NCBI GenBank assembly: GCA_051747585.1
Contig: JBNJGH010000018.1
Location: 1 to 45,267 of the forward strand
DNA: 45,267 bases
DNA from: Candidatus Rifleibacteriota bacterium
GTDB lineage: Bacteria; Muiribacteriota; Ozemobacteria; Ozemobacterales; Ozemobacteraceae
Reading direction: 5' to 3'
Shown: piece after piece, positions 4,805 through 44,447 of the stretch
Layout of the letters: the number at the start of each line of letters is the position of its first letter
How positions within the stretch are numbered: position 1 is the stretch's first letter
Program-made: the position numbers and the translations under genes
The notes under the pieces: generated by a model
The model's database searches: none
What the model was told of the DNA's origin: nothing
The model's input: only the letters and a program-made list of their open reading frames with translations

Positions 4805-5165
4805 CAGCAATTATCCATTTAGTAATATTAGTAATTCTCGGTCAATCATTATTAGCTGGTTACAAAAAGTTCTGGTTTTATTTCTTTCTGTCAAATATAG
4901 AATTTAAACCACTGAGGCCACCGAGGGCACAGAGTTGATTTTTTAATCTTTTTCAGCCAGGATTTGTCCTGTGGACAAATAGCCGGCGGTTTCACCGCCC
5001 GGCTTTCTCTTCTATCTTTAATATTTTCTTTGGCTTGCTTTAATCTTTTTCTAATTTTTCTCTGCGCCCTTTGCGATCTTTGCGAGATTTCCTGCCTTCC
5101 TCTGTGGTTATTTTCTTTGTGGCTTTGCGACTTGGTGTGAGGAATTTTCTTTTCTGAAGCGGATT
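4805..5165 (+). repeat. Nested palindromic element A1 (family A, partial: lacks the 66-bp hairpin and right terminus), preceded by a 26-bp family-B terminus
   Basis: B end CAGCAATTATCCATTTAGTAATATTA 4805-4830, A terminus AGTAATTCTCGGT 4830-4842, AATCTTTTTCAGCC 4945-4958, hairpins ATTTGTCC-tgt-GGACAAAT and GCCGGCGGTTTCACCGCCCGGC; right flank matches A3/A5. Confidence 0.85.
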
Positions 5166-12765: not shown

Positions 12766-12978
12766 TAGTAATTATCCATTTAGTAATATTAGCGAGTTTC
12801 AAGACATTTTTGTATTTTTTGTTATGTACTAAATTTGAGCATATCAAAGATTGCTTCGCTCGCAATGACAGCCACAAATTGTCATTGCGAGGAGTTCTGC
12901 GTAGCTTTATGCGAAGCAGAACGACGAAGCAATCTAAATGTCTTGAAACGGTTTATACAAACAAATGGATAATTACTG
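12766..12978 (+). repeat. Nested palindromic element B1 (213 bp)
   Basis: Terminal IR TAGTAATTATCCATTT/AAATGGATAATTACTG; layer 2 GTTTCAAGACATTT/AAATGTCTTGAAAC; layer 3 AGATTGCTTCG/CGAAGCAATCT; inner hairpins TCGCAATGACA..TGTCATTGCGA and GTTCTGC..GCAGAAC. Confidence 0.9.
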
Positions 12979-12996
12979 GGGTAATTTTAATAATTG

Positions 12997-13025
12997 TTGA
13001 TAGTTTTTAAGTTGTACGATATAAT
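12997..13025 (+). promoter_or_regulatory. Sigma70 promoter for the yicC operon (probably leaderless)
   Basis: TTGATA 12997-13002, 17 bp, TATAAT 13020-13025, 8 nt to ATG 13034, no SD. Confidence 0.65.
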
Positions 13026-13033
13026 CACGGTCT

Positions 13034-13909
13034 ATGATTTCAAGTCTAACCGGTTTTGGACGTGCAGCATTTACTGATGAAGCTGGGCGCATCAGCGTCG
13101 AGCTGAAGTCGGTCAACAACCGATTTCTTAACATCGATCTCCATCTACCCTATGGTTTTAACTGGCTCGATGGACTGTTGCGCAAACAGATAAGCAATAA
13201 CGCCTCTCGTGGAAAAATCCACCTTTACCTTGAAGTGGTAGATTACAACCCAAGTCAAGATGTAATCATCAATCGTCCGCTGTTAGAAAGACTAATAAGT
13301 CTAAACACTGAACTTTCCGGCGAAAACAAAACGCCTTTGCCACTTCAACTCGATGGACTTCTTTCTTTACCCGGAGTCATGAAAGTAGATTCAAAAGTAA
13401 TCGACAATGACAGAATGTGGAAACGAATTCAGCCGGTCGTAAAAGAAGCACTGGAAAAATTTATCGATTCACGAAAACGTGAAGGGCAGAATCTTGCCGA
13501 TGACCTTAACCAGAGGTGTCAGAATCTTGCCCGAATTGTTGCAGAAATTGAAAAACAAATACCTGAATTCAAAAAGGTTTTTATTGAAAAGTTCACCCAG
13601 AGAATCACTGACCTGGCCCAGAAGGCCGATGTCGACGAAAATCGACTTAATACTGAAATTGCAATCTGGGTTGATAAAACAGATGTAAGCGAAGAGCTTA
13701 TAAGGCTGAACAGCCATCTTAAAGAATTTAACAATATACTTACGTCAGACAAGCCGGTAGGCAGACGTCTTGATTTTATTGTTCAGGAACTAAACCGTGA
13801 AGCCAACACTCTCAGCAGCAAGATTAGTGATGTGGGGGTTTCCCAACTGGCAATCGATATTAAATGTGAGCTTGAAAAGATTCGCGAACAAGCCCAGAAC
13901 ATTGAATAG
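13034..13909 (+). CDS. yicC: YicC/YloC family endoribonuclease
   Basis: MISSLTGFGR, ELKSVNNRFL, RGK, REG, DVSEELIRLNSH, GRRLDFIVQELNREANT, EKIREQAQNIE. Confidence 0.95.
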   Translation: MISSLTGFGRAAFTDEAGRISVELKSVNNRFLNIDLHLPYGFNWLDGLLRKQISNNASRGKIHLYLEVVDYNPSQDVIINRPLLERLISLNTELSGENKTPLPLQLDGLLSLPGVMKVDSKVIDNDRMWKRIQPVVKEALEKFIDSRKREGQNLADDLNQRCQNLARIVAEIEKQIPEFKKVFIEKFTQRITDLAQKADVDENRLNTEIAIWVDKTDVSEELIRLNSHLKEFNNILTSDKPVGRRLDFIVQELNREANTLSSKISDVGVSQLAIDIKCELEKIREQAQNIE

Positions 13910-13918
13910 GAGCAGAAA

Positions 13919-14221
13919 ATGAAATCCCAACTGCTGAATATTGGTTTTGGAAATGTGGTTGTATCTGAAAGAATAGTTGCAATCGTTGGCCCCGGTTCCG
14001 CACCAATAAAACGACTCAAAGAAGATGCCAAAGAACAGGGCCGCCTTATAGACGCCACCTATGGCAGAAAAACAAGAGCCATTGTTGTAACTGACTCAAA
14101 TCATGTTATTTTATCGGCGATCAATCCTGAAACCGCAGCAATGCGAATGCTTGGAAAAAAAGTGGTTCATGAAAGTCATGAAGATACTTCAGATATGGAC
14201 TCAACGGAGGTTGAAGAATGA
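13919..14221 (+). CDS. remA: Extracellular matrix/biofilm regulator RemA (DUF370)
   Basis: [10 protein letters not shown]...RIVAIV.P.SAPIKRL...[29 protein letters not shown]. Confidence 0.93.
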
Positions 14222-14424
14222 AATTTCGCTCTAGATCAGAAATTACCAACAAAATACCCAACAAATACGATGCCGTTCTCGCAATTTCTAACCGCGTCAA
14301 AATGCTGGTTGACGGCAAAAAACGTCTTGTAGAAGATTACGATGAAAATCAGGTAAAAATTGCAATGGAAGAAATTGCATCAGGAGCCCTTGAAGTTGAG
14401 GTCCAGGAAAAAGGCAAAAAATAA
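14218..14424 (+). CDS. rpoZ: RNA polymerase omega subunit
   Basis: [19 protein letters not shown]...[10 protein letters not shown]; position in the yloC-remA-(gmk)-rpoZ-coaBC-priA synteny. Confidence 0.85.
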
Positions 14425-15346: not shown

Positions 15347-17742
15347 TGATTTACCTTGAAGTCTCTTTTTCACAACCTATTGGCGAAGGAACTCTGACCT
15401 ATCATCTTCCGAACGCTCAGGCCATGCCGGCAAGAGGCTGTAGAGTCGTCGTACCGGTCCAGGGAAGGCAACTGATAGGTTATATTACCGGCATTACCAC
15501 TGAAACACCACCATTTAAAACCCGCCCGATCAACCAACTCGTAGATCCCCTGCCCCTCTTTTCGCCTGAAATGCTCCAACTTGCCGAAGAAACAGCCGAA
15601 TCCTGTGTTGCCAATATTGGCGAAGTTTTGCACGCAATGCTTCCGGGCGGCATAAAAAAAAGAATTGTTCGTCATATTCGTATCGCCAAGCAAGATCAGA
15701 TAGCAAACAACTCTGAAGAACCCGCATTGAATTGGCTACTTGAAAAAGACTGGACAAATTATTCAACTTTCCTTGACCATTTTCCCAAAGCCGCCTCCAG
15801 AGTTTCGCAATGGCTCGAAGCCGGCATTATAGAAATAGCTCACAGTATCAGCAAGTCTGCCGGACCAAAAATTATAAAAGTACTTAAGCCCGCACCTGAC
15901 ATTCCAATTAATGTTGATCAGCTTACGGAAAAACAAAAGCTGGCAATGCAAACCCTGCTCAAACTTAACAACGCTCCAACCGCCAACATGCTGGCAAAAT
16001 TGTCCGGCGTCAGCACAGCCCCAATTAGCCAGCTCAAGAAAAAGGGGCTGGTTATCGAGGTTGAGGAAAGAATTATTCGTCAAGTTGCAACTGAAGACTA
16101 CTACAAAGGCCCCGGTGAAGACATTCCAACTTTAAGTACTGAACAGAAGACTGTCTTAAAAACCATTGAAGACTCATACAATTCAGAAAAACAGCCGGTA
16201 TTGGTTCGCGGGGTAACATGTTCGGGCAAGACTGAAGTTTATCTTCAATGGGTAAATGAAATTCTGGGCAAATCTAAAACCGCCATAGTTCTGGTGCCTG
16301 AGATTTCTTTAACTCCCCAGATGATGAAACGTTTCAAAGACAGATTCGGCAGCAGAGTAGCTATTTTGCACAGCAAACTGTCAACCGGTGAACGCTTTGA
16401 CCAGTGGGAAAAAATCCGCTGTGGGGAAACCCCCGTAGTAGTGGGTGCCCGATCTGCTGTTTTTGCTCCACTACCCCGGCTCGGCACCATAATCCTCGAC
16501 GAAGAAGGCGAACCTTCGTTTAAGCAGGGCGATTCACCCCGCTACCATGCTCGCGATGTTGCTCAAAGACGATGTAAAATTGAAGATGCGCTTCTGATAA
16601 TGGGCTCGGCAACCCCAACCATAGACTCTTTTAACAGCTGCCAGAACAAACATTTTAATCTTGTAGAAATGAATTCCAGAGTCAGCGACCGAAAACCGCC
16701 GGAAGTAGAAGTAGTTGACATGCGTTACGAACTGGTTACCCGCAAAAACCGCTCTATTTTTTCCGAGCCGCTCTCGAAGGCAATCAAAAATACACTGCAA
16801 AATAAAAAACAGGCAATCCTTTTTCTCAACCGCCGGGGTCACAGCAGTTTTGTTTTCTGTCGTGAATGTGGCGAACCCGTTCAATGCTCTCAATGCAAAG
16901 TTTCCCTGGTTTTTCACAAGGGTTCTAACATTCTACGCTGTCATTATTGTGGTGAAATCCAGAATATTCCCAAAACCTGCCCGAACTGTGGCAGCAATAT
17001 GATCAAGTTCTTTGGGGCAGGCACCCAGAGAGTCGAGTCAGAGGCGGCACGCTATTTTCCCGACGCAAAAATTGCCCGCCTCGATTCCGATACTGTCTCT
17101 ACCCGCGGAAGTATGGAAAAAATACTCGACAGCTTTGGAAAAGGCGATATAGATATTCTGGTCGGCACTCAGATGGTCGCCAAAGGGCTGGATTTTCCCA
17201 ATGTAACTCTCGTTGGCATTCTTGCAGCCGACAGTCTTCTGCGAATTCCGGACTTTCGCGCTTCAGAAAGAAATTTTTCGCTCCTGGCTCAGGTTTCCGG
17301 TCGTGCCGGACGTGGAGATTCACCCGGCAAAGTGATTTTGCAAACCTATTCACCGGACCATCATTCAATTAAATATGCCCTGACCGAAGACTATCACGGT
17401 TTTTTCAAAGAAGAAGCAAGACAAAGAAAAGAAGCCCTTTTTCCGCCTTTCATCGAACTGGCCTCGTTCATTATTTCATCGAAAGACAACGAAAAAGCCC
17501 AATCAACTTCTCAGCAGCTTTTTGAAAATCTGATAAGTTTCAGCGAAATCGATGAAGAAATGGTTTTTGGCCCTGCTCCAGCCGCCATAGAAAGATTACA
17601 TGGCCGCTTCAGATACCAGTTAATGCTCAAAATGAGTGACCAGAACGTGCTCACCACCCTGGTTAGAAAAGCGCTGTCCCAACTCAAAAAACCGGGCGAC
17701 ACAAGGGTAAGTGTAGACATCAACCCCTGGTTCATGCTCTAA
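15346..17742 (+). CDS. priA: Primosomal protein N' (replication restart helicase)
   Basis: GVTCSGKTEVY, LVPEISLTPQ, VVGARSAVFAP, DEEGE.SFKQ, GSATP, LNRRG, four CxxC, GTQMVAKGLDFP, QVSGRAGR, VDINP. Confidence 0.97.
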   Translation: MIYLEVSFSQPIGEGTLTYHLPNAQAMPARGCRVVVPVQGRQLIGYITGITTETPPFKTRPINQLVDPLPLFSPEMLQLAEETAESCVANIGEVLHAMLPGGIKKRIVRHIRIAKQDQIANNSEEPALNWLLEKDWTNYSTFLDHFPKAASRVSQWLEAGIIEIAHSISKSAGPKIIKVLKPAPDIPINVDQLTEKQKLAMQTLLKLNNAPTANMLAKLSGVSTAPISQLKKKGLVIEVEERIIRQVATEDYYKGPGEDIPTLSTEQKTVLKTIEDSYNSEKQPVLVRGVTCSGKTEVYLQWVNEILGKSKTAIVLVPEISLTPQMMKRFKDRFGSRVAILHSKLSTGERFDQWEKIRCGETPVVVGARSAVFAPLPRLGTIILDEEGEPSFKQGDSPRYHARDVAQRRCKIEDALLIMGSATPTIDSFNSCQNKHFNLVEMNSRVSDRKPPEVEVVDMRYELVTRKNRSIFSEPLSKAIKNTLQNKKQAILFLNRRGHSSFVFCRECGEPVQCSQCKVSLVFHKGSNILRCHYCGEIQNIPKTCPNCGSNMIKFFGAGTQRVESEAARYFPDAKIARLDSDTVSTRGSMEKILDSFGKGDIDILVGTQMVAKGLDFPNVTLVGILAADSLLRIPDFRASERNFSLLAQVSGRAGRGDSPGKVILQTYSPDHHSIKYALTEDYHGFFKEEARQRKEALFPPFIELASFIISSKDNEKAQSTSQQLFENLISFSEIDEEMVFGPAPAAIERLHGRFRYQLMLKMSDQNVLTTLVRKALSQLKKPGDTRVSVDINPWFML

Positions 17743-17840
17743 CAGATTAAGCATCACACAAAGCCACTGTAGACACTAAGAAAAATTAAAACAATTTCGG
17801 GTGTCCGCGTCGGTATCGAATTTCGCTTTTCGTAATTTTC
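17741..17840. repeat. Repeat fragments: family-A outer flank (inverted) and family-C module
   Basis: AACAGATTAAGCATCACACAAAGCC resembles A4 AACAGATTAAGCCTCACGACAAGCC (38021-38045). CGGTATCGAATTTCGCTTTTCGTAATT resembles CGGAATCGGAATCGCTTTTCGTCATT (29450-29475). Confidence 0.55.
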
Positions 17841-17854
17841 TAAAAATTAACTGA

Positions 17855-18225
17855 CAGAAATTCTCAGTGAACCGTTATTAGGTTTTCTTCAAAAGTTTTG
17901 TCTTGATTTATTACTGTCAAATATAGAATTTTAACCACTGAGATCGCTGAGGGCACCGAGACGATTTTAAAATCTTTTTCAGCCCTTGTTCCCGGCAACA
18001 GCAGACTCTCAGAAAAGCACCAGTGTTTTTCTGAGAGTCTGCTGTTGCCGGGAAAGCCGGGCGGTTAAACCGCCCGGCTGATTGTCCAAAGGACAATCCA
18101 CGGCTGAAAAAGATTCTCTGTGTAACTCTGTGAGCTCTGTGGTTTTTTTCTGGCTGATTTGAGGCCTGGTTTAAGGAAAATCCTTTTTCTTAAACGAGTT
18201 AATAATCGCTAACCGAGAATTACTG
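17855..18225 (+). repeat. Nested palindromic element A2 (371 bp, complete)
   Basis: Termini CAGAAATTCTCAGT/ACCGAGAATTACTG; inner IR AATCTTTTTCAGCC 17971-17984 / GGCTGAAAAAGATT 18102-18115; 66-bp hairpin 17989-18054 followed by two short hairpins. Confidence 0.92.
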
Positions 18226-18304
18226 TAAAACGCAATGGGTACTTTAAATTTTTTCGTATTATGATATATTATTAATGAATAATGTTAGTTTTCCGGAGGA
18301 AAAA

Positions 18305-18817
18305 ATGGTTTATCGAGTATTACACTATGGTGAATCTCCATTAAGAAAAGAATCAGAAGAAATAAGCGAAATCAACGAAGAAATCGAAAAACTTGTTGAA
18401 GATATGTTTGAAACCATGTATGACAGCAATGGTGTAGGCCTTGCCGCTCCCCAGGTTGGCAAAAACATCAGGCTTTGCGTTATAGATACCGGCGACGATC
18501 CGTTGATTTTCATAAATCCAGAGATTATAAAAAAATCTGGAAAAGAAGTTGATGATGAAGGCTGCCTTTCATTACCCGGCCTGAGCGAAAAAGTTGCCCG
18601 CGCAACCACAGTAGTCGCCAGAGCAACTGACATTGACGGCAGTGAATTCGAAATCGAAGCAGAAGGCCTGCTGGCCCGCGCCATTCAACATGAACTTGAT
18701 CACCTCGATGGAGTTCTCTTTATCGATAGAATTTCTAAAGCACGCCGGCTGCAGCTCAAAAATGAGCTCGAGCTTATCCAACAAGGTGAAACAATTCAAC
18801 AGGAAGCGGTTGCATGA
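18305..18817 (+). CDS. def: Peptide deformylase
   Basis: GVGLAAPQVG, EGCLSLPG, QHELDHLDG; GGAGG SD supports ATG 18305. Confidence 0.97.
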   Translation: MVYRVLHYGESPLRKESEEISEINEEIEKLVEDMFETMYDSNGVGLAAPQVGKNIRLCVIDTGDDPLIFINPEIIKKSGKEVDDEGCLSLPGLSEKVARATTVVARATDIDGSEFEIEAEGLLARAIQHELDHLDGVLFIDRISKARRLQLKNELELIQQGETIQQEAVA

Positions 18818-19755
18818 GTTTAAACAAATACAGGGTAGTATTTATGGGCTGCCCTGATTTTGCGGTTCCATCTCTGCAAGCGTTGGTTGAAGACGAAAAT
18901 TTTTCTGTAAATGCAGTTTATTGCATGCCTGACAAACCAAAGGGTAGAGGCAAAAAGTTAGCCCCTACCCCGGTTAAAGTCTGTGCACAAAAACTGGGAA
19001 TCGAAGTTAATACCCCCTCTTCCTTTAAAAAATTCCCCGAAGAAATAGAAAAACTGCGAAGCTATAAACCTGACTTTCTCGTAGTTGTTGCCTATGGTCT
19101 GATTCTCCCTCAGGCGGTTTTAGACATACCGGCCATCGCTTCGGTCAATGTCCATGCATCTCTTTTACCGCTTTATCGTGGTCCCGCTCCGATTCATCAT
19201 GCAATTATGAATGGCGACAAAGTTACCGGCAACACCCTGATGCTTATGAACAACCGAATGGATGAAGGCGATATTCTGGCCACCTCAAAAGTTGAAATTG
19301 GCCCGGGCGATAACCTTGAAAAGCTTCACGATCGCCTTAGTCTCGACGGGGCAAAACTTTTAATTCCTACTCTTAAAAATTTTGCTGCGGGTAAAATTGA
19401 GCCACAGCCACAAAACCATGAACTGGCAACCTATACCGGCAAAATTAACAAAGAATTGGCTGCAATTGACTGGAATAAGAGCGCACCTTCGCTCTACAAC
19501 CTCATTCGTGCGATGAACCCTTACCCCGGTGCCTGGTTCAAAGACGGGAAAGAAAAAATAAAAGTTTTTACGGCAGAAATCGGGCCATCGACGCAAGCTG
19601 CCCCCGGCACCCTTTTAAGCAAAGAAAAAAAGATACAGGTTGCCTGCGGAGAGAATACCAGTCTATTTCTCACCACTCTTCAGCGCCCCGGAAAATCACG
19701 TCTCGACAGCGAATCTTTTCTGCGCGGTTATCAATTTAAGACCCATATCCTTTAA
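18814..19755 (+). CDS. fmt: Methionyl-tRNA formyltransferase
   Basis: VFMGCPDFA, PDKPKGRG, VVAYGLILP, NVHASLLP.YRGPAPI, MDEGDIL. Confidence 0.97.
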   Translation: MSLNKYRVVFMGCPDFAVPSLQALVEDENFSVNAVYCMPDKPKGRGKKLAPTPVKVCAQKLGIEVNTPSSFKKFPEEIEKLRSYKPDFLVVVAYGLILPQAVLDIPAIASVNVHASLLPLYRGPAPIHHAIMNGDKVTGNTLMLMNNRMDEGDILATSKVEIGPGDNLEKLHDRLSLDGAKLLIPTLKNFAAGKIEPQPQNHELATYTGKINKELAAIDWNKSAPSLYNLIRAMNPYPGAWFKDGKEKIKVFTAEIGPSTQAAPGTLLSKEKKIQVACGENTSLFLTTLQRPGKSRLDSESFLRGYQFKTHIL

Positions 19756-19970
19756 TAGTAATTATCCATTTTGTAATATAAGTGGGTTTCAAGACATTTT
19801 TGTTTCTTTTAAACATTAAATTTTAGAATATCAAAGATTGCTTCTTCGTTCTGCTTCGCATAAAGCTACGCAGAACTCATCGCAATGACAATTTGGGGCT
19901 GTCATTGCGAGCGAAGCGAAGCAATCTAAATGTCTTGAAACCTTTATTATAAAAACATGTAGAATTGCTG
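19756..19970 (+). repeat. Nested palindromic element B2 (215 bp); inner cassette inverted relative to B1
   Basis: Outer flanks colinear with B1; 19845-19917 matches the reverse complement of B1 12858-12925; right end AGAATTGCTG is family-A-like. Confidence 0.9.
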
Positions 19971-19994
19971 AATACTTTAAAGCTTGCAAATACT

Positions 19995-20012
19995 TTGATA
20001 TTTTTTGCACAA
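19995..20012. promoter_or_regulatory. Candidate Rex operator upstream of rex
   Basis: 18-bp TTGATATTTTTTGCACAA resembles the TTGTGAA-N4-TTCACAA consensus and lies just upstream of a possible -35 TTGCAA (20017-20022). Confidence 0.45.
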
Positions 20013-20076
20013 ACTATTGCAAATTTCTTTTTTTCTGTGATATTAACTCTTATACCAGTTTCAAGGAGAAAGAAAG

Positions 20077-20754
20077 TTGCCAAAAAAATCCGTACCCCCG
20101 CAAGCCACGATTCGACGACTTTCTGTTTATCTTCGCTATTTAAGCAGCCTTGAAAACGACGGTATACAAGTAGTTTCTTCTCAATCCCTGGCCGAACGCC
20201 TCGGTTTGAACTCTGCTCAGGTAAGAAAAGATCTCGCTTATTTTGGCGAAATGGGAAAACGCGGAGTCGGTTATAAAGTTAAGAAGCTACGTGATCACAT
20301 AATTAAAATTCTCGGGCTGCAGCATCTACGCAAAGTTGGCATTATCGGTGCGGGCGGACGACTTGGCCGCGCTCTTGCTCTTTATACCGGTTTTGAAAAA
20401 AGAAATTTCAAGGTTTCTGCCCTTTTCGATGTTGACCAGGAAGTGGTTGGAACAATGCTTGCGAGGGAAGCCGGTGCAATAATGCATATCGACGAATTAC
20501 CCCGGGCAGTTAAAGAACGAGAGATTGAAATTCTTATATTAACTGTTCCTGCCGAGGCAATAAAGTCTGTTTATGATATTGTTATGCTTTCAGGGGTTAA
20601 GGCTGTATTGAACTTTGCTCCTTTCAAGCTGATTTCAACCGAAGATGTAGTTGTACACAATGTCGATTTGACTACCGAGCTCGAATCGTTGAGCTATCAC
20701 CTGCAACTGCATGAATCCAGATGCGATCTTTTTAGTGCAAACAACGAAGACTAA
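20077..20754 (+). CDS. rex: Redox-sensing transcriptional repressor Rex
   Basis: P.ATIRRLSVYLRYL, SSQSLA, SAQVRKDLAYFGEMGKRGVGY, IIGAGGRLGRAL, ILTVP, LNFAP; TTG start with AAGGAG SD. Confidence 0.96.
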   Translation: MPKKSVPPQATIRRLSVYLRYLSSLENDGIQVVSSQSLAERLGLNSAQVRKDLAYFGEMGKRGVGYKVKKLRDHIIKILGLQHLRKVGIIGAGGRLGRALALYTGFEKRNFKVSALFDVDQEVVGTMLAREAGAIMHIDELPRAVKEREIEILILTVPAEAIKSVYDIVMLSGVKAVLNFAPFKLISTEDVVVHNVDLTTELESLSYHLQLHESRCDLFSANNED

Positions 20755-20797
20755 AACTAACAACTTTCTTAATTGAATTTTTTCTGGCAACGGCTGC

Positions 20798-21165
20798 CAG
20801 GAATTCCCGGTGAACATTTATCAGATGCTTACAAAAAGTTCTGGTTTTATTTTTTTAGGGCAAATAAAGAATTTAAACCACTGAGGCCACCGAGGACACA
20901 GAGTTGATTTTTTAATCTTTTTCAGCAAGGATTGTCCTTTGGACAATCAGCCGGCGGTTTCACCGCCCGGCTTTCTCTTCTTCAACAAGCCTTCAGAAAA
21001 GCACTCGTGTTTTTCTGAAGGCTTGTTGAAGAAGAGAACAATGGCTGAAAAAGATTCTCTGTGTTCTCTGTGTGCTCGGTGGTTATTTTCTTTGTGGCTT
21101 TGAGGCTTTGTGTGAGGCATAGTCTTTTCTGTTACAAACTGATAATCATTAACTGAGAATTGCTG
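20798..21165 (+). repeat. Nested palindromic element A3 (368 bp, complete); inner cassette inverted relative to A2
   Basis: Termini CAGGAATTCCCGGT/ACTGAGAATTGCTG; inner IR 20914-20926 / 21043-21056; short hairpins come first, then the 66-bp hairpin 20973-21038. Confidence 0.92.
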
Positions 21166-21181
21166 CACAGTTGCTCGAACC

Positions 21182-21211
21182 TTGACAGATATTGAATTTG
21201 AGTGATATTTT
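21182..21211 (+). promoter_or_regulatory. Sigma70 promoter for STAS-rel-udg
   Basis: TTGACA 21182-21187, 18 bp, TG-n-TATTTT 21206-21211; AGGAG SD 21234-21238. Confidence 0.6.
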
Positions 21212-21243
21212 ATATTGTCCAATCCTAATTTTCAGGAGTTTTC

Positions 21244-21609
21244 ATGAGTCTCAATATTCAGTCTCAACAGCATGAAAACGATATTTTTGTCATTGAAGTT
21301 CAGGGCGAGATTACCTTCGACAATTCCGATGAACTCAAGACAGAAATTGACAAACATGTAGAACAGAACCATACCAGACTTATAATTGATCTTGCCGGTT
21401 TAAAGTATATGAGCTCTGCCGGAATGGGGGTTCTGGTTCATGGCATGAAAAAGACCAGAGCCAAAGAGGGTGACCTGCGCCTGATAAACCTTGGTGCCAA
21501 AATGAAAAGAGTTTTTATAATAACTCAGTTTACTCACCGGTTTAAAGTTTTCGACAACCTCGACCAAGCCTTGAATAGTTTTAAATCTGATGAAAAGCAG
21601 GTGACCTGA
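21244..21609 (+). CDS. STAS-domain anti-sigma factor antagonist (RsbV/SpoIIAA type)
   Basis: IEVQGEI, LIIDLAGLKYMSSAGMGVLV (phospho-Ser motif), GDLRLINL. Confidence 0.92.
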   Translation: MSLNIQSQQHENDIFVIEVQGEITFDNSDELKTEIDKHVEQNHTRLIIDLAGLKYMSSAGMGVLVHGMKKTRAKEGDLRLINLGAKMKRVFIITQFTHRFKVFDNLDQALNSFKSDEKQVT

Positions 21610-21610
21610 C

Positions 21611-23815
21611 ATTTCACTTTCAGACATTATCAATGCTGTAAAACAATATAATCCTGAAGCCGACTTCGATCGTATAAAGCAGGCTTATAATTTTGCAAAA
21701 GAATGCCATAAAGACCAGTTCAGGGCATCGGGAGAACCTTATTTTCTTCATCCCGAATCGGTAGCCATGATTGTTGCTACGGAGCTTCGCCTTGATTCAA
21801 CTTCTATATGCGCCGCACTGCTTCACGATGTAATTGAAGACACGCCTGTAACCGCAAATGATATAGAAGAAATGTTCGACCCTACCATGGCGCAACTGGT
21901 TGAAGGCGTAACAAAGTTGAACAAGATGTTCTTCAGCTCTGCTACAGCTGCTCAGGCTGCTAACTTCAGAAAAATGCTCTTTGCCATGACCAATGATGTC
22001 AGAGTTATTTTAATAAAGCTGGCAGATAGACTGCACAACATCAGAACCCTGCAATACCTGCCGCCGGTAAAGCAAAAGTATGTAGCCCGCGAAACCATAG
22101 AAATCTATGCTCCCCTCGCCCACCGGCTTGGGATCAACAAAGTTAAAAGCGAACTCGAAGAAACTTCTTTCAAGTTTATTCAGCCCGAAAAATATAAAGA
22201 AATTAATGAATTTTTAACCAAAGCAGGGCTTGAAGGCGAAAAAAAGCTTCAGGCCGCCATGCACAAAATTCAAGAACATCTTCGCGAATATCATATCAAA
22301 GCAAATATTTCAGGCCGCCCGAAACAAGCTTTCTCGATTTATAACAAGCTGGTTAAATATAATGCCGATCTTGAAGGATTATATGACTTTTTAGGCATTC
22401 GCATAATAACCAGGTCGGTAAAAGACTGTTATGCAGCCCTGGGAATGGTTCATAAAAACTGGAAACCCATACCAGGACGCTTTAAAGATTATATCGCCGT
22501 TCCAAAACCCAATATGTATCAGTCTCTGCATACTACGGTTATTTTTGACGGTCAACCGCTCGAGGTGCAGATCAGAACCGAAGAAATGCACCGCATTGCC
22601 GAAGAAGGCATCGCTGCGCACTGGGATTACAAAGAAGGCACTCACAAGAACGTAACCCCCGATTACAAAGAAAAGCTATCCTGGCTGCGCAATCTCATTG
22701 ACTGGTATCAAGAAGTTAAAGACGCCTCAGAATTCATGGAGACGGTCAAAGTTGAATTGTTTCAATATCATGTTTATGTTTTTACTCCAAAGGGTGAAGT
22801 AATAGAGTTACCCAGCGGAAGCACTCCGATTGATTTTGCTTACAGCATCCACACCGATGTCGGACATCGCTGCATGGGTGCCAAAGTCAACGGGAACATT
22901 GTTCCGCTCGAATATAAGTTACAAAACGGTGATATCGTCTCGATTATTACCAGCAAAAACCAGAAAGGCCCAAGCCGCGACTGGCTCAAAATAGTAGGCA
23001 GTGCCAGTGCCCGCCGCAAAATCAGAGTCTGGCTGCGAAAAGAATTCCGCGATGAATACATAATTTCTGGCGAGCGTGAATTTTTAGAAACTTTCAGCCG
23101 CATGGGCGGAGACCGGGAAACCGAAAAAACTTTTAAAACCAACGCTTTTACTGCCAGGGTTAAAGAGCTTGGCTTCCCTTCAAAAGAAGAACTCTATGCC
23201 GGAGTCGGCTCAGGCGAAGTCAGAGCTCAACAGGTTATTGGTAAACTGTTTCCTGATCTGGTAGTCAAATCAACTCCGAAAAAGAACAAACCGACTCGAA
23301 AACAGAAGCAGAAAGCCAAACAGCAAAAAGGGCCGAAAATTATAGTTGGTGGGCTCGAAGACACACTTATAAAAATATCCAAATGCTGCAACCCTATTCC
23401 CGGAGATGACATAATAGGCTATATTACCCGTGGCCGAGGTGTTACCGTTCATAAAAAGAACTGCCCTAACGCTCGCCATCTGGTATCAGACAACGAAAAC
23501 AGACTGATTGACGTTCGCTGGGATATGGGCATCGAAGACGAGAACGAACCCACAAGTGAATATCTTGCCAAAGTCAGAGTAGAAACAACCGACCGCAAGG
23601 GAATGCTCAATTCTGTCACCTCAGTAATAGCCAATCAGGGCGTTAATATCCATTCAGCGGCAGCAAAAACGACCAAACAAAAAACCGGTCTGCTCGACTT
23701 TTCGGTTGAAGTTCGCAACTCTACCTCGCTCGACAGTCTTATGCGCGCAATTTCGCGACTTATAGGCGTTACCAAAGTTTATCGACTCGAAAAACAGGGT
23801 AAAAAGAAGAAGTAA
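21611..23815 (+). CDS. rel: Bifunctional (p)ppGpp synthetase/hydrolase Rel (long RSH); probable ATT start
   Basis: In-frame region upstream of ATG 21767 encodes AYNFAKECHKDQFRASGEPYFLHPESVA; LLHDVIEDT, KLADRLHN, RFKDY, YQSLHT, EVQIRT, TGS, CCNPIPGD, ACT. Gene identity is firm, start position inferred. Confidence 0.95.
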   Translation: MSLSDIINAVKQYNPEADFDRIKQAYNFAKECHKDQFRASGEPYFLHPESVAMIVATELRLDSTSICAALLHDVIEDTPVTANDIEEMFDPTMAQLVEGVTKLNKMFFSSATAAQAANFRKMLFAMTNDVRVILIKLADRLHNIRTLQYLPPVKQKYVARETIEIYAPLAHRLGINKVKSELEETSFKFIQPEKYKEINEFLTKAGLEGEKKLQAAMHKIQEHLREYHIKANISGRPKQAFSIYNKLVKYNADLEGLYDFLGIRIITRSVKDCYAALGMVHKNWKPIPGRFKDYIAVPKPNMYQSLHTTVIFDGQPLEVQIRTEEMHRIAEEGIAAHWDYKEGTHKNVTPDYKEKLSWLRNLIDWYQEVKDASEFMETVKVELFQYHVYVFTPKGEVIELPSGSTPIDFAYSIHTDVGHRCMGAKVNGNIVPLEYKLQNGDIVSIITSKNQKGPSRDWLKIVGSASARRKIRVWLRKEFRDEYIISGEREFLETFSRMGGDRETEKTFKTNAFTARVKELGFPSKEELYAGVGSGEVRAQQVIGKLFPDLVVKSTPKKNKPTRKQKQKAKQQKGPKIIVGGLEDTLIKISKCCNPIPGDDIIGYITRGRGVTVHKKNCPNARHLVSDNENRLIDVRWDMGIEDENEPTSEYLAKVRVETTDRKGMLNSVTSVIANQGVNIHSAAAKTTKQKTGLLDFSVEVRNSTSLDSLMRAISRLIGVTKVYRLEKQGKKKK

Positions 23816-24925: not shown

Positions 24926-27900
24926 ATGAGGAATCTCCTGGTTATTTTTCTTATGTTCTGCCTGTGCATTTTCATTGGCTGTCTCGGTATGAGCGGTTCA
25001 AGTGAAACCGGCACCATTACCGGCCCTACCCAACAAGACAGTATTTCACTCATTTCAGGAAGGGCATACTTTTCTGACCGCCAGTTGTATGGCTACATTC
25101 CAATCGCAGCTGTTAATGCTGCCGACGAACAAAGCGAATTAGTTTTTACCGACAGCGCAGGCTATTATAATTTTTATGAGCTAAAACAGGGAATTTACGA
25201 TCTGGTTGCTATAACCGGAGAAAGTGAAGTTACCTTCGCCCGCGGAGTTCAAGTTGACGGATCTAAACCGGTTCAGGTTTCGCAAACCGCTCTTTTAGGA
25301 TTAAGCGAAATAATTGTAAGCAATATCAGTTCAACTTCTTTTAAACTTAGTTTTAAATCCAACCGCGCCGCAAGAGCTTCAGTGGAATATGGACCTGTAG
25401 GCAGTTTTCAGGAGATTGTAACAATTGGGCAGGCTGGTGCCACTTATCATGAAGTCACTCTTACCGGTCTGAAACCATTTACCAATTATGAAGTATCTAT
25501 CTACCTTACCGGTGATGACGGGCAAACCTTTATTATGCGCGGCCTCTCTGCTGCAACTACTTCCGGCACTGGACCCGAAAATCTTATGGTAGCAATAAAT
25601 GAAGGCTTCTATGAAACCGACTCCCATAATGTAACCCTTGATCTTAACGCAGATAATGCTGCCGAAATGCGAATTGGCGAATCTTATGACCTTTCTGACG
25701 CAAACTGGGTAAGTTACTCTCCAACCTACGATTACAGCTTCAAAAGCCTTTCCCCCGGCACCAAAAGAGTATATGTTCAATTTAAAGACTCCAATGGGCA
25801 AACCTCTTCAATTCAAAACGATTCTATACTTTTGAATCAGACTGGATATATCGGTGTCTGGATAAACGATGGGGATGCCCTTACAAATAACACTGATGCG
25901 ATATTAAGCATTGCTTACCCCGGTGCAACCGAAATGAAACTTTCAAATTCTTCAAGCTTTATAAATTCTTTCTGGGAACCTTACATTGAAGTAAAAAAAT
26001 GGAAATTTGATTCGGAAGACGGCCTTAAAACAGTTTATTGCAAATTCAAAGGTGGCCAGGCAAATCCTGATGAGACTTTTACGGCGTCGATTATAGTCGA
26101 TACTACTCCCCCTGAAGTAAAGATGGAAATTAACGGTGGAGATTCCTATACTGCCTCTACCACTGTTTACCTCTCATTTAACTTCACTACTTTACCAACC
26201 GAGATGAAAATTGCCAACAGCGAAGCTCCAACCAGTGAGCAAAGCTGGATTGACTTTGAAACCCCTTATGAGTGGGAAGTCTCGACAGACGATGAAGAAA
26301 AAACTATATATGCACTTTTCCGTGACGGGGCAGGCAATGAATATGGCCCGATTTCAGAAATAATTGAACTGGATACCGCTGCTCCGACCGGTAACAGCAT
26401 CTCAATCAAATATGACGATGATGCTACGGGAGAAGATATTGAATTTGCCTTGACTGCAAGCCTTCCGGTTTTCCTCCATTTTGACGTAGCCGACGAATCT
26501 ACACATGAAGCAAGATACGCAATAACAGAAGCTACTACTACTGAACCTTTAAACTTAACCAGCGTAAGCGCTCCCTTTCCTCCAGTTGCTCTATATGAGG
26601 AACAAATACCGGTTGGAGAACATAAAATCTGGACTCAGTTTGCAGACGAAGCCGGAAATACCGGTTATTTTCAATCGCAACAGCTGACAGTTGACGGTCC
26701 CCAGATTATTATTTCACCGGAAAGCAGCGAACTTTTGTCAGATGACGAACAGCAATTCACTGCAACTATTAAAAACATTGAAATGCAGGATGTTGGCTCT
26801 ATCAGATGGCGTGTTATCAATGGATCTGGAACAATAGATGATGATGGGCTATACACTGCACCTGCGCCAATATATAAAAATTCACAAGCTACAGTAAGAG
26901 CAGACTCTACCGAAATATCAACCCTTTACAAGCACGCCACAGTTAATTTGCAGACTTCGGTTGAAATGCTTTTTCAGCAAAGAGGCGACAGCTTCGATTA
27001 TGATGAAATAGAAGATCAGGTCGCACCCGACCAGGAGTTTAACCAGCAAATTCAAATTCTGCACAGCAATCAGGGCATTGAAGTCAGTAGCCAACCCTCA
27101 GCAGGAACGGTTGCAGTTTCTGCTCCCGCCAGTTTTAATTATGGAGTTGTAGCGACCCTTACTTATAATGCTCCTGACGTTGCTCCCAGCCCCAACGAGG
27201 TTTTTATTGGTGTTCGTTCGGTCGAAAAGCCACAAACAGTAGTAGGCACAATCAGTTTACTTATCTCAACCGGCCCTAATATCGCTCTTTCCGCATCAAA
27301 CGACAAGGTTCAAAGAAATTCTCCAATCGATGTGTCTGCAGATATTAAAGGCACAGATGAAACCGATGTTAACTGGACCCTCAGCCCGGCCAATTGGGCA
27401 AGCTTTGATCAGAACGACAATTCCGTTAACACAACAACATCCAGCCCCGATCACGATGTTTCCATTTATGCCGCAGAACCTTCGCAAATTAAACAGGCGT
27501 CATTAACTGCAACCATAGATGGCACAAGCAAAAGTTACAATTTCTCTGTTTATCCGCCAATCAGCTTTCAGATTAATCCTGTCGCAACCTCAGCCCTGCC
27601 TTTAATAGACCCCATTACTTTCAAGGCACAGAGTTTTGATTATATGCTTGATACGGCAACTGAATCCGTTACCTGGGAATTCAAAAACGCAAGCCGCCCC
27701 GACTTCATGCCTGCTGACGGTAAAACTTATATCGACAGAGGCTCTTTGACGGTTATAGACTCTACAACAGCCGAATATAGAAGGCCTACTAAATTACCCA
27801 GCGAAACAGATACTACGGCAGCAGATTACATAGTTATAAGGGCAACAGCCAAATCAGACCCGACCGCTTCTAATACTGCGATCGCAACAATTACCCCCAA

Positions 27901-29398
27901 TGTAGAGGTTAAAGTCTATAAAACAATCGAAAAAGACAACCCCATAACCGAAGCAGAGACCGTAGCAGAAGTAGGTAAGATTCAATTCTTTGCTGATGTA
28001 ACTCCCAGTGTTATTGGCAATACGGCTGTAAGCTGGACAGTAAACGGAGTAACAGAATCTGAGCAGTATGGCAGCATCGACCAGAACGGACTTTATACAG
28101 CACCTGATGAAATCGTTGTAAACGAAGTAACGGTAAGAGCTTCTTCTGATTATGACCCAACTGCTTTTGCATCTGTAGACGTCTCTTTAAGCCCTTTCTG
28201 GATGCCAAAAAGACAAAATATGACAGACTCAATAACTGATGAATTAATGCCAATAGAATCTCTACTGGTCAATCCTTACACTGCAAGTGGTACAGGCTTT
28301 GAAGTTTATGCCGGCACCATAAAATATGGTGTGTGGCGTGCGTTCTTTTCCGACACACCTGGCGACACCAGCGGTGGCGACTGGGAGCCCATACAAAATT
28401 TATCCAGTGACAACCAGGAAGCCACAGGGAAATACTTTATTGGCTCTCTTGTTATTTCGCCGGACGAATATATATATGCAGGCACTAAAGACGGTATCTG
28501 GTATATTCCAACTTCCGGTGCTGCCCAAAAGGTAACAGGGGATGAAGCAGCAAACAACCCACCAGATGAAAACTATTTAAAATTAGAATTTCATACCCAG
28601 CATTCCGAATACCTGTTCGCCACAACTCCCGGTGGGGTTTACCGTCTGGAACTACAAGACCCCCAAACCTGCTCGGGATGGCAAAAAATACTTAATACAA
28701 CTGATCCCTTTAAAGATTCAGAATTAGAATCCCGAACAGATGACACTGCTTCTCCACCTGTAACTGTTTCTGCCTACACCAACACCTATAACGACAATCC
28801 TATAGACGGTATTCTGAAAACTATCGCCTATGATGACTATAATAACCGTCTTTATGCCGGTGGCGAAGACGGAATTTTTCTTTATATGAAAAACACATCG
28901 GTTCCCAATCTTATAGAAACAACCGCTGATGCTTTTGTTGCCAATCCTCCCAGTGTTGCTACGACCTTATCAAATTTTTACCTTCTTTCTGGTAATCAAC
29001 CAGAGCAAAATACCCTCGCTGCACCGCCTTTAGATATGGCCCTGGATCAGATTAATCGAAGCACCATCTGGGCAGCCACTGTCGGAGGAGTATATAGATC
29101 TGTTGACAACGGAACAACATGGACTGCTAAAGGATTTGGGACTGGTAGCACAGTCAACACAAGAGCTATAATTGTCGATCCGACAAACACTATCAACGTT
29201 CTTGCAGGTAGTGAAGACGGGCTTTACCGCTCAACCGATGCCGGTGGCAGCTGGAAACGAATCCGCAGCGGTCTTGGTAACCATAAAACTATAACCTGCT
29301 TAATTCAAGCAGCCGGTAGAGCAGGTGAGAGAAGAAAAGTCTGGGTCGGCACCGCCGGCGGAGTTTTTATGGGCCGCCAGTCCCTCGATTTAGAGTAA
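24926..29398 (+). CDS. Large acidic surface lipoprotein: carboxypeptidase-regulatory-like, FN3 and Ig-like repeats, C-terminal BNR/Asp-box beta-propeller
   Basis: Lipobox FIG|C; HEVTLTGLKPFTNY (FN3); repeated IN.G...T....V.L / G.K.VY..F.D; G.ID..GLYTAP twice; YRSVDNGTTW and YRSTDAGGSW Asp-boxes. Confidence 0.85.
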   Translation: MRNLLVIFLMFCLCIFIGCLGMSGSSETGTITGPTQQDSISLISGRAYFSDRQLYGYIPIAAVNAADEQSELVFTDSAGYYNFYELKQGIYDLVAITGESEVTFARGVQVDGSKPVQVSQTALLGLSEIIVSNISSTSFKLSFKSNRAARASVEYGPVGSFQEIVTIGQAGATYHEVTLTGLKPFTNYEVSIYLTGDDGQTFIMRGLSAATTSGTGPENLMVAINEGFYETDSHNVTLDLNADNAAEMRIGESYDLSDANWVSYSPTYDYSFKSLSPGTKRVYVQFKDSNGQTSSIQNDSILLNQTGYIGVWINDGDALTNNTDAILSIAYPGATEMKLSNSSSFINSFWEPYIEVKKWKFDSEDGLKTVYCKFKGGQANPDETFTASIIVDTTPPEVKMEINGGDSYTASTTVYLSFNFTTLPTEMKIANSEAPTSEQSWIDFETPYEWEVSTDDEEKTIYALFRDGAGNEYGPISEIIELDTAAPTGNSISIKYDDDATGEDIEFALTASLPVFLHFDVADESTHEARYAITEATTTEPLNLTSVSAPFPPVALYEEQIPVGEHKIWTQFADEAGNTGYFQSQQLTVDGPQIIISPESSELLSDDEQQFTATIKNIEMQDVGSIRWRVINGSGTIDDDGLYTAPAPIYKNSQATVRADSTEISTLYKHATVNLQTSVEMLFQQRGDSFDYDEIEDQVAPDQEFNQQIQILHSNQGIEVSSQPSAGTVAVSAPASFNYGVVATLTYNAPDVAPSPNEVFIGVRSVEKPQTVVGTISLLISTGPNIALSASNDKVQRNSPIDVSADIKGTDETDVNWTLSPANWASFDQNDNSVNTTTSSPDHDVSIYAAEPSQIKQASLTATIDGTSKSYNFSVYPPISFQINPVATSALPLIDPITFKAQSFDYMLDTATESVTWEFKNASRPDFMPADGKTYIDRGSLTVIDSTTAEYRRPTKLPSETDTTAADYIVIRATAKSDPTASNTAIATITPNVEVKVYKTIEKDNPITEAETVAEVGKIQFFADVTPSVIGNTAVSWTVNGVTESEQYGSIDQNGLYTAPDEIVVNEVTVRASSDYDPTAFASVDVSLSPFWMPKRQNMTDSITDELMPIESLLVNPYTASGTGFEVYAGTIKYGVWRAFFSDTPGDTSGGDWEPIQNLSSDNQEATGKYFIGSLVISPDEYIYAGTKDGIWYIPTSGAAQKVTGDEAANNPPDENYLKLEFHTQHSEYLFATTPGGVYRLELQDPQTCSGWQKILNTTDPFKDSELESRTDDTASPPVTVSAYTNTYNDNPIDGILKTIAYDDYNNRLYAGGEDGIFLYMKNTSVPNLIETTADAFVANPPSVATTLSNFYLLSGNQPEQNTLAAPPLDMALDQINRSTIWAATVGGVYRSVDNGTTWTAKGFGTGSTVNTRAIIVDPTNTINVLAGSEDGLYRSTDAGGSWKRIRSGLGNHKTITCLIQAAGRAGERRKVWVGTAGGVFMGRQSLDLE

Positions 29399-29430: not shown

Positions 29431-29566
29431 CTGTATCTAAAGTCGCTATCGGAATCGGAATCGCTTTTCGTCATTGCGAGGAGTGCAGCAACGAAGCAAT
29501 CTTATTCTTATCAAGAAAAGATATTTTAACTGTGATTGCTTCACTCCGCTCGCAATGGCAGCCACA
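29431..29566. repeat. REP-like doublet B4 plus family-C hexamer module between convergent genes
   Basis: GTCATTGCGAGGAG..CGAAGCAATC (29470-29501) faces GATTGCTTC..CTCGCAATGGC (29534-29559); same modules as the B1-B3 cores but arranged outward. Confidence 0.8.
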
Positions 29567-37984: not shown

Positions 37985-38354
37985 TAGCAATTCTCGGTAA
38001 GCGACTATCAGCTTTTTTGAAACAGATTAAGCCTCACGACAAGCCTCAAATCCCCCAAAGAAAATAACCACAGAGCTCTCAGAGAATCACGGAGAATCTT
38101 TTTCAGCCATGGATTGTCCGGATGGACAATCAGCCGGCGGTTTCACCGCCCGGCTTTCTCAGCCACAGCAAGGTCTAAGAAAAGCACAAGTGTTTTTTTG
38201 AGACCTTGCTGTGGCTGAGAACAAAGGCTGAAAAAGATTGGAAAATCAGCTCAGTGCACTCTGAGCCTCCGTGGTTAAAATTCTATATTTTACAGAAAGA
38301 AATAATACCGGAACTTTTGGTAACCAGCTAATAATAATTGACCGAGAATAGCTG
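37985..38354 (-). repeat. Nested palindromic element A4 (370 bp, complete, minus orientation)
   Basis: Termini TAGCAATTCTCGGT/ACCGAGAATAGCTG; inner IR 38095-38108 / 38226-38239; 66-bp hairpin 38156-38221; followed by a family-B end fragment GCAATTATCCATTT..CCGTTTCAAGA (~38367-38402). Confidence 0.92.
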
Positions 38355-38412
38355 GCCATTATTTGCCGCAATTATCCATTTCTTTTTGAAACCGTTTCAA
38401 GATATATTGAAA

Positions 38413-40635: not shown

Positions 40636-41372
40636 GGATGCACCCCGTTAAGCTTTCCTCTTACGCAGAAACTGCTCTTAACCGCATGGGCAATGCCACG
40701 ATCGTCTTCATCACGACTTTTGCGAACAAATGTTGCTCTAACGTGAATCAGATATGGACCGGTACCATCAAGATCGTAAGGTTCATAGGTCAAAAGATTT
40801 TTAAACGGCAAACCGGCGGCAAACTTGGTTAAAGTTACAGGCTTGCGATTAGTTGTATAAACCAGCATTTCTTTTATGCCTTCACAAATTTTCTTTTTAT
40901 AAGTTCCTTTTTTCCCTGGTATATCAGAGCGGGAAATACGGTAAAGGTCGCTGGTATTGTCTTTACGCTTTTTCAGCCGATATTCTATAATTTCTTCACG
41001 CAGAAAAGCAGGATCCGGCGGCTTAACCGAAAAATCAAGAACCTGCCTGCGTAAAACACAGACCTTGCCTTCGTTAACAGGCATCAAAACCGATACAGTC
41101 TGCCGATTAGTCTGCTGCGGATACTCGACCCAGGAAGCATTGCGAACGTCATTTCCAAAATTTGCAAAAAAACGACGAGCGCTTTCATTTACTCCTATAT
41201 GCTCAAGAGCAACCTTTATAGAACGAACCTCGGCGAAAAACAATTTGTAAGCTGCAAGCATTAGCAAGGCAAACAAAGCGCCTGCAAGAACAATCTCAAC
41301 CAGAGTTATGGCTCTTTTATTCTTAAATAAAGTTAAAACTGATTTTTCATTAAAACTCATAGCTGCTACCAT
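40632..41372 (-). CDS. Prepilin-type N-terminal cleavage/methylation protein (PilW/GspJ-like)
   Basis: KNKRA|ITLVEIVLAGALFALLMLAAY with Glu+5; ..F.NDVRNA. Confidence 0.8.
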   Translation of the reverse strand: MVAAMSFNEKSVLTLFKNKRAITLVEIVLAGALFALLMLAAYKLFFAEVRSIKVALEHIGVNESARRFFANFGNDVRNASWVEYPQQTNRQTVSVLMPVNEGKVCVLRRQVLDFSVKPPDPAFLREEIIEYRLKKRKDNTSDLYRISRSDIPGKKGTYKKKICEGIKEMLVYTTNRKPVTLTKFAAGLPFKNLLTYEPYDLDGTGPYLIHVRATFVRKSRDEDDRGIAHAVKSSFCVRGKLNGVHP

Positions 41373-41948: not shown

Positions 41949-42136
41949 CAGTAATTATCCATTTGTTCATAATGACCGTTTTAAGACATTTAGATTGCTT
42001 CGCTCGCGCAGCGTGTCCGCTCGCAATGACAGCCCCAAATTGTCATTGCGATGAGCATCGCGAAGAAGCAATCTTTGATATTATAAAATTTAATGTTTAA
42101 TAAAAAATCAGCTCGGTGATCTCTGTGGTGAATTAC
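41949..42136 (-). repeat. Nested palindromic element B3 (minus orientation, chimeric far end)
   Basis: CAGTAATTATCCATTTG terminus, TTAAGACATTTAGATTGCTTCG, TCGCAATGACA-gccccaaat-TGTCATTGCGA, GAAGCAATCTTTGATA; ends in family-A-like AAAATCAGCTCGGTG..CTCTGTGG. Confidence 0.85.
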
Positions 42137-44051: not shown

Positions 44052-44447
44052 CAGCAATTCTTCTTAATTGCAAAACTAAGTGCCGGTTATACGGCACTTA
44101 GTCTTGCAAAATCTTTATTAGTGGGTTTATTTCTTTCTGTCAAATATAGAATTTAACCACGGAGAGCTCAGAGTACACCGAGCTGATTTTAAAATCTTTT
44201 TCAGCCAATGTTCCCAGCAACAACAAGCCCTCAGAAAAACACCAGTGTTTTTCTGAGGGCTTGTTGTTGCTGGGAAAGCCGGGCGGCAAAGCCGCCGGCG
44301 GATTGTCCATTCGGACAATCCATGGCTGAAAAAGATTCTCTGTGATTCTCTGTGAGCTCTGTGGTTATTTTCTTTGCGGCTTTGAGACTTAGTGTGAGGA
44401 ATATTCTTTTCTTATACGACTTGATAGTCGCTGATGGATAATTACTG
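44052..44447 (+). repeat. Nested palindromic element A5 (chimeric ends)
   Basis: Family-A body from ~44126; inner IR 44193-44206 / 44324-44337; perfect 66-bp hairpin 44211-44276; right end ATGGATAATTACTG is family-B type; extra hairpin TTGCAAAACTAAGTGCCG..CGGCACTTAGTCTTGCAA 44068-44109. Confidence 0.9.

Follow-up and report, generated by a model that had tools for sequence, protein, structure and literature searches.

Prokaryotic MITEs include Nezha, whose partner is ISNpu3, and Chunjie (PMC3184786, PMC10969869, of which the available parts are used here). By anatomy these two are the closest MITEs to the element described below. Two other lines of published work bear on the same element. As far as the available text of three studies goes (PMC5941160, PMC8604942, PMC8794818), template switching homogenizes the arms of a palindrome, inverts its spacer reversibly and acts more strongly with longer arms. 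The Mutator-like ISLre2 and ISKra4 are described as inserting in one orientation, 15-17 bp upstream of -35 boxes (PMC3942029). Here we describe a locus in which such known parts occur in an unusual combination: a real and unusually clean self-correction of a palindrome inside a promoter-seeking MITE.

The window, i.e., the whole stretch of DNA analyzed, comprises 45,267 nucleotides and is contig C18 of the draft genome GCA_051747585.1 of a Candidatus Rifleibacteriota bacterium (4.14 Mb in 330 contigs). It holds four copies of a 66-bp hairpin, here named hairpin K, each with 32-bp arms and a 2-nt loop. A preliminary description had located these copies correctly and had counted their Watson-Crick mismatches correctly (1, 1, 3, and 0). 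It had overlooked the MITE around them: hairpin K is a passenger, an inner module of a non-coding, non-autonomous DNA transposon (MITE) of approximately 370 bp. The features of the window are as follows (strand is given where one is assigned).

17855..18225, plus strand: MITE copy 1, family 1, 371 bp, A end left and B end right; core in the opposite orientation to that of most copies; target duplication decayed, 5 of 9 positions being mismatched
17855..17868, plus strand: left 14-bp terminal inverted repeat of copy 1, A end
17972..18114, minus strand: invertible core of copy 1, 143 bp, containing hairpins K, H3, and H2 between the two arms (17972-17984 and 18102-18114) of a 13-bp inverted repeat
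17989..18054: hairpin K of copy 1, 66 bp, arm positions 3-20 variable and 21-32 conserved; G·T at arm position 29; tip of 10 bp, invertible
18055..18079: GC-rich hairpin H3 of copy 1, perfected here and bulged in 93 of 106 copies
18080..18098: short hairpin H2 of copy 1
18212..18225, minus strand: right 14-bp terminal inverted repeat of copy 1, B end, which is the promoter-side end
20798..21165, plus strand: MITE copy 2, 368 bp; core 20915-21055; target duplication with 3 of 9 mismatches
20973..21038: hairpin K of copy 2
21182..21211, plus strand: sigma-70-like promoter motif, its -35 box TTGACA starting 16 bp past the B end of copy 2
37985..38354, minus strand: MITE copy 3, 370 bp; core 38096-38238; target duplication of 9 bp, one position mismatched; a -35-like box lies 16 bp past the B end
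38156..38221: hairpin K of copy 3
44052..44447, plus strand: MITE copy 4; core 44194-44336; left part atypical, left boundary uncertain
44211..44276: hairpin K of copy 4, perfect
4829..5145, plus strand: fifth family-1 copy, without K; keeps H2 and H3, with other sequence standing where K would be; right end decayed, boundary approximate
12766..12978: family-2 MITE, 213 bp, same kind of terminal repeat, different core
19756..19970: family-2 MITE, 215 bp
41949..42110: family-2 MITE, right-truncated, boundary approximate

A further family-2 position lies at 29446-29560. Among the remaining contents of the window are two very large convergent ORFs (29578-37932 and 24926-29398; 2784 and 1490 amino acids), both with Ig-like/fibronectin-type repeats and the bigger one with 528-bp internal repeats. 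Three genes at 38413-41869 (167, 246, and 740 amino acids) have N-termini that look pilin-like by eye and are without a Pfam match, and the secreted-looking 326 amino acid protein encoded at 42193-43173 matches a transglutaminase-elicitor family (E-value 3e-27). A short stretch within the atypical left end of copy 4 (44062-44100) recurs in locus L022 near 3420-3400, upstream of an IS1380-like gene region, and possibly represents another repeat family.

The two arms of hairpin K change together. Between the copies at 17989 and 20973, the left arms differ at 10 of 32 positions and every difference is mirrored in the opposite arm; the preliminary description had reported exactly this for copies labelled A2 and A3, and the labels fit that pair. 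The copies at 20973 and 38156 show nine left-arm differences, eight of them mirrored. The G·T pair at arm position 29 is a mismatch common to three of the four copies. A swap in both arms of the short hairpin, also noted earlier, is real, and it may be one event inherited by a single subfamily.

The same symmetry holds throughout the genome. The tip motif of hairpin K has 108 matches there (reversed-pattern controls: 0), and 107 cores were collected, of which one proved spurious, leaving 106. Arm statistics are based on 102 of these (four were dropped for indels) and on arm positions 1-28. Within copies there are 35 arm-arm mismatches, or 1.2% per site, while arms of different copies differ at 31% of sites, so that the two rates whose equality would have refuted the preliminary description are far apart. 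Shuffling the partners yields 865 ± 28 mismatches, with a minimum of 771 in 1000 shuffles. Relative to the majority sequence, 545 changes are mirrored and 35 are one-sided (80 distinct hairpins). When the dominant subfamily is left out, the values in 56 of the 102 copies are 1.8% within and 39% between copies. Counted pair by pair in a 20-copy alignment, a both-sided change occurs in 23 of 32 pairs and 97.8% of cells are paired, a level reached by none of 500 shuffles. Mirrored steps on a spanning tree of 71 distinct hairpins comprise 121 transversions and 106 transitions, although long branches may be saturated. Eight copies carry one extra base in both arms, compared with 68 of standard length.

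The symmetry is not uniform along the arm. Positions 3-20 drift between copies yet match within a copy, whereas positions 21-32 are conserved across copies, and the position-29 mismatch is kept in 80 of 102 copies (39 of the 56 divergent ones), all other mismatches being erased. In 17 non-dominant copies, arm divergence (0.42-0.49) is about twice that of the flanks (0.22). In 28 dominant copies, core divergence is 0.05 and lies below that of the flanks (0.11) and of the target duplications, eight of which are exact. This uniformity points to exchange between copies or to smoothing by the assembler; its centre-peaked shape is given no weight as evidence, since smoothing would be expected to leave that shape as well. 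The idea that the arms are captured spacers or former target duplications found no support: compared with their own genome, 47 distinct arms match only other copies of the element, the remaining matches being at most 15 nt and at shuffle level.

Parts of the element also occur inverted. The central 10-bp tip is found as exact reverse complements, 28 with A·C and loop GA and 11 with G·T and loop TC, and the core is found in both orientations against its flanks. All four tip/core isomers are present among 35 near-identical copies, and opposite tips occur in 12 pairs that are identical in the H and K arms. Tip orientation is random on the copy tree, with 18 changes for 62 copies against a shuffle mean of 19; for core orientation, 16 changes among 77 copies compare with 23 in shuffles, both counts being rough since trees of recombining repeats are unreliable. 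The central loop of family 2 is likewise found in both orientations. Inversion is rare in short or bulged stems: bulged H3 is reversed in none of 106 copies, and the H2 loop reads ACA once and TGT 39 times.

Each core of approximately 142 bp consists of K, H2, and H3 bounded by a 13-bp inverted repeat, and lies within an element having a 14-bp terminal inverted repeat at either end. The length is 365-375 bp in 37 of the 43 family-1 elements having both ends. A 9-bp target duplication is exact in 13 of 37 cases and within one mismatch in 21 of 37 (other lengths: at most 4; shuffled pairings: mean 0.05), and only one of the 106 cores lies inside a long ORF. Family 2 (approximately 200 bp) has the same kind of end and 9-bp duplications, with a different central hairpin. 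The two families are stacked end to end at several places (G000 C64:10228-10881 and 19509-19943, C125:6481-7003; window 4805-4842 and 38354-38379), as expected if insertions repeatedly land at one pre-promoter spot. Some mini-elements, 50-59 bp long, consist of a near-perfect palindrome of a single end type (G000 C1:62839-62897; L041:70-119 in G017), the one in L041 with a direct target duplication. A perfect inverted repeat with 52-bp arms at a contig start (G000 C236:1-116) is unrelated to the MITE and possibly an assembly fold-back. K arm positions 11-24 resemble the terminal repeat of the element itself, and CAGCAA starts both; judging by this resemblance, hairpin K may be derived from an IS end.

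The element family is present in sequencing run X9, from a relative approximately 88% identical in genes, and thus is not unique to the GCA_051747585.1 assembly. Compared with window positions 12950-14231, 18216-19851, 19921-20919, and 21155-22000, X9 has elements at the same intergenic sites with different K arms. The shared positions (near 12950, 19851, and 20919) may be old insertions or independent promoter hits. In four runs no joint skipping a whole element, i.e., no empty site, was seen, the contigs mostly breaking in repeats.

Are insertion sites random with respect to genes? Of 101 distinct flanks read outward from the B end, 52 have a -35-like hexamer that begins at positions 15-19 (at position 17 in 38 of them), against a mean of 5.9 and a maximum of 13 in control windows; 45 of these flanks also have a -10-like hexamer at the right spacing, both boxes being called as motif matches and the promoters thus predicted. 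At the A end the count is at background (10 of 118; background 11). Family 2 shows the hexamer at one end in 21 of 70 cases and ends from other genomes show it in 27 of 117 (controls 6-12). Among intact elements elsewhere, the box lies at position 17 in L192 and at position 18 in L190, and L100 and L221 are without it. By these motif matches, the B end of the MITE sits approximately 16 bp upstream of -35-like boxes; the second MITE family and intact elements of relatives show the same placement. We did not find a promoter-upstream rule for ISNCY-type elements in the literature searched, a search whose coverage leaves out most subscription journals.

In other genomes, DDE transposase genes lie between the same ends. 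When species genomes were scanned for the end motif, the matches listed included 1736-bp elements with exact 9/9 duplications around a DDE transposase (L100 and L155). In the family of the host, a 9/9 duplication surrounds the 1773-bp element L192, and L190 carries family-1-type ends without a duplication; the partner protein is matched in nine of 50 other genomes of that family. The end motif is enriched in several same-family genomes (e.g., 62 and 50 matches), one of which contains a MITE of 278 bp that shares these ends, has 9-bp duplications, and differs in its nested-hairpin core. In the host assembly, a transposase with the MITE ends was not found; the only homologue, L196, is a distant DDE protein (26%) with an ORF upstream and without those ends. 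As the ends are shared elsewhere and none flanks a transposase in the host, we regard the element as a MITE with its transposase missing from this draft.

Partner proteins match only PF01609 (DDE_Tnp_1) and PF13808 (DDE_Tnp_1_assoc) at E ≤ 0.1, with no Mutator family match at that threshold. Over more than 90% of its length the transposase is 33-38% identical to three plasmid proteins annotated as ISNCY, one of them on a Nostoc punctiforme plasmid, in an element with a similar terminal repeat and a 10-bp duplication (38% identity). Its subgroup may be the one named ISMae2. Curated NCBIfam models gave nothing at cut-off (weak scores for IS701, IS4, and IS1634), and a solved-structure search with the transposase found nothing. 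The available parts of PMC2779907, PMC7031236, and PMC9208149 were of no help in placing the partner IS. Other candidates were set aside: searches of the genome itself for RAYT, IS1380, IS1182, and Mutator genes gave three genes, all without the element ends, and 25 DDE_Tnp_1 loci from five relatives have no MITE-type end. As separate observations, L022 1300-2601 is a single IS1380 transposase without MITE ends, and L023 (G000 C194) is a frameshifted IS1182 remnant with short terminal repeats intact.

What keeps the arms matched? Since arm homogenization together with spacer inversion is the published signature of template switching, we read the symmetry as arm-to-arm copying, most likely by host replication. 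The preliminary description had offered two readings, arm copying and a strongly selected RNA structure. The first is supported by the near-absence of mismatches, by mirrored transversions about as frequent as transitions, by paired lengthening of the arms, and by inverted tips; the second is not supported (see below). We infer arm copying from paralogous copies within one draft assembly, and we think it probable that hairpin K is a MITE passenger whose arms are kept matched by template switching of the replicative polymerase, which sometimes inverts the loop. The whole-element fold-back palindromes at C1:62839-62897 and L041 also count in favor of template switching.

The course of events may have been as follows. 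The element has 14-bp ends and 9-bp duplications, and the same ends surround DDE transposases elsewhere; a transposase of this kind would have amplified it in trans and set its B end approximately 16 bp upstream of -35 boxes. Arm positions 3-20 are free to vary between copies and are matched within each; any new point mutation would be either removed or transferred to the opposite arm well ahead of the following one. Switches within a molecule would homogenize the arms, and those between molecules would also invert the tip or the whole core. The most speculative step concerns position 29, where the mismatch might persist by lying inside the short stem that primes fold-back and so being rarely overwritten. 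Passive switching does not explain the conservation of arm positions 21-32, nor fully the survival of the position-29 mismatch.

These two features are the starting point of an alternative that we consider possible but unlikely, namely programmed symmetrization. Here a nicking or resolving enzyme would recognize the conserved 26-bp tip, which the preliminary description had named as a possible recognition site, and cut beside it, and one arm would be re-synthesized from the other; the tip would flip as in rolling-hairpin transfer, and K and the core would move between MITE shells as cassettes. Conservation of positions 21-32 while positions 3-20 are free would then mark the recognized sequence, and the tip asymmetry is indeed kept in 80 of 102 copies. 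Cassette movement would agree with two elements in which a second K replaces H2 (K-H3-K; G000 C52:1328-1517 and C92:8206-8400), the two K arms being unrelated, with the same K beside different H2 types (C288, C305), and with a dominant-group core more uniform than its flanks. The K-H3-K elements and the dominant-core uniformity, like the conserved positions 21-32, the position-29 mismatch, and the high arm divergence of the 17 non-dominant copies, would be compatible with a dedicated activity or with inter-copy conversion. However, there is no candidate enzyme: the sole RAYT-like gene (L001 1174-1812) lies on a contig from which the motif cluster is absent, although the contig end truncates this gene on its 5′ side. 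Inversions are also seen in the family-2 loop and in the core between the 13-bp repeats, neither of which has sequence in common with the tip.

Hairpin K is, moreover, dispensable. K-less or K-truncated copies exist, one K-less type has multiplied to several copies, and a K-less joint was seen in run X1. The tip motif matches in one of 86 other genomes of the phylum, where it is not a hairpin, and an exact scan for the 26-base tip gave, in the records covered, no match in species genomes or viral contigs and 11 in metagenomes, none of these a full hairpin or matching this genome. Both the multiplication of K-less copies and the absence of the tip hairpin from the other phylum genomes argue against a programmed process. 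In its broadest form, the tip would be a putative nick or resolve site at which an arm is re-copied and the tip flipped, K and the core would be invertible cassettes spreading by conversion, and a promoter-guided transposase of a non-Mutator kind would beforehand have parked the shells 16 bp upstream of promoters; taken jointly, we find this doubtful.

Selection on an RNA structure, i.e., a small RNA, an RNase III substrate, or a terminator kept by compensatory mutation, would account for the strong covariation, for the fixed length, and for the very stable predicted RNA fold of K (z = -15), and MITE transcripts are known to fold and be processed according to the part of PMC10969869 available. 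A selected RNA should tolerate G·U pairs on the way from one pair to another, but one-sided G·U intermediates are almost absent. Read in core orientation, mismatches of the body comprise 14 G·T, 11 A·C, and 10 others. G·T is not favored on the transcribed strand: in copies located between tandem genes, the tip shows G·T 10 times and A·C 20 times, and the body has five G·T and seven A·C (strands called from simple longest-ORF genes, with 35 of 106 contexts unresolved). Tip and core invert freely, tip orientation is random, and the element lies upstream of the -35 box of the promoter motif. Rfam, which the preliminary description had recommended searching, contains no match at family threshold, the best being 54 bits against 90 among sub-threshold matches to miRNA hairpins. 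Assembled contigs of RNA run X3 show short, divergent, low-depth pieces over the element, which carry no weight either way. Altogether, the arm symmetry fits copying at the DNA level with loop inversion, not selection on RNA, which we judge very unlikely.

Little more can be said for the view that a cruciform or single-stranded DNA hairpin of fixed length aids transposition or a promoter and that its pairing is selected, not copied, and we give it equally low credence. The strand-neutral mismatches do fit a DNA-level structure, the whole element is predicted to fold as DNA (z = -13.8), and compensatory changes in REPIN spacers have been read as selection in the available text of PMC3116915. 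This view, however, needs hundreds of double mutations, transversions and paired indels included, almost without intermediates and on elements of neutral scale; selection by itself yields no inversions, and K-less copies and K-less relatives have the same ends. A short-read assembly artefact behind symmetry and flips is hardly credible: although the draft has 330 contigs and bubble removal can homogenize repeat middles and might account for the way uniformity peaks at the centre in the dominant group, the symmetry is present in 56 divergent copies without a high-coverage alternative path, arms of 28-32 bp with different flanks on each side should form no bubble at usual k-mer sizes, and an independent X1 contig bridges copy 1 (17135-18103; 13 differences in 969, no gaps).

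The genome offers one hairpin replicated naturally over 100 times, next to shorter stems within the same element, a set that allows arm copying and loop inversion to be measured against stem length in a wild bacterium. It also presents textbook-quality covariation (0 of 500 shuffles) in DNA without sign of a functional RNA, and covariation alone can mislead RNA-motif searches in repeats. As to insertion, a non-Mutator transposase group joins those that are apparently promoter-guided, and its intact copies make such guidance testable.

How does the element compare with the systems already described? It resembles Nezha and Chunjie, as their reviews portray them, in being short, non-coding, and present in many copies with a stable fold, and in having a target duplication (9 bp in Chunjie) and terminal repeats shared with IS in other genomes. 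It departs from them, within what those descriptions cover, in its interior, which consists of nested invertible modules and a hairpin with 32-bp arms that drifts symmetrically. Multi-copy hairpin repeats with compensatory changes are also found, by the text available, in the bcr1 repeats of Bacillus cereus (PMC3184786) and the REPINs of Pseudomonas (PMC3116915), both with a variable spacer of constant length. REPINs are tied to RAYT tyrosine transposases and bounded by REPs, whereas the unit mobilized here is bounded by IS terminal repeats of DDE type with 9-bp duplications, and no REP-flanked RAYT was found, the one RAYT-like gene being truncated on its 5′ side. The duplications of bcr1 are 5 bp and its covariation was read as acting at the RNA level. 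No copying mechanism is given in the portion of bioRxiv 10.1101/119743 available.

With the insertion pattern of TnGBS, ISLre2, and ISKra4, as far as PMC3942029 describes it, the element shares oriented insertion about 16 bp upstream of -35 boxes; the transposases there are Mutator-like, while the partner here has DDE_Tnp_1 and DDE_Tnp_1_assoc only, with homologues annotated as ISNCY. The quasi-palindromes ascribed to template switching (PMC5941160, PMC8604942, PMC8794818, in their available parts) share with hairpin K the homogenization, the spacer inversion, and the effect of arm length. The published cases are scattered single events, mostly with short arms; here there are more than 100 copies with the orientation of the tip randomized, and a conserved tip with a retained mismatch, present in hairpin K, does not appear in those descriptions.
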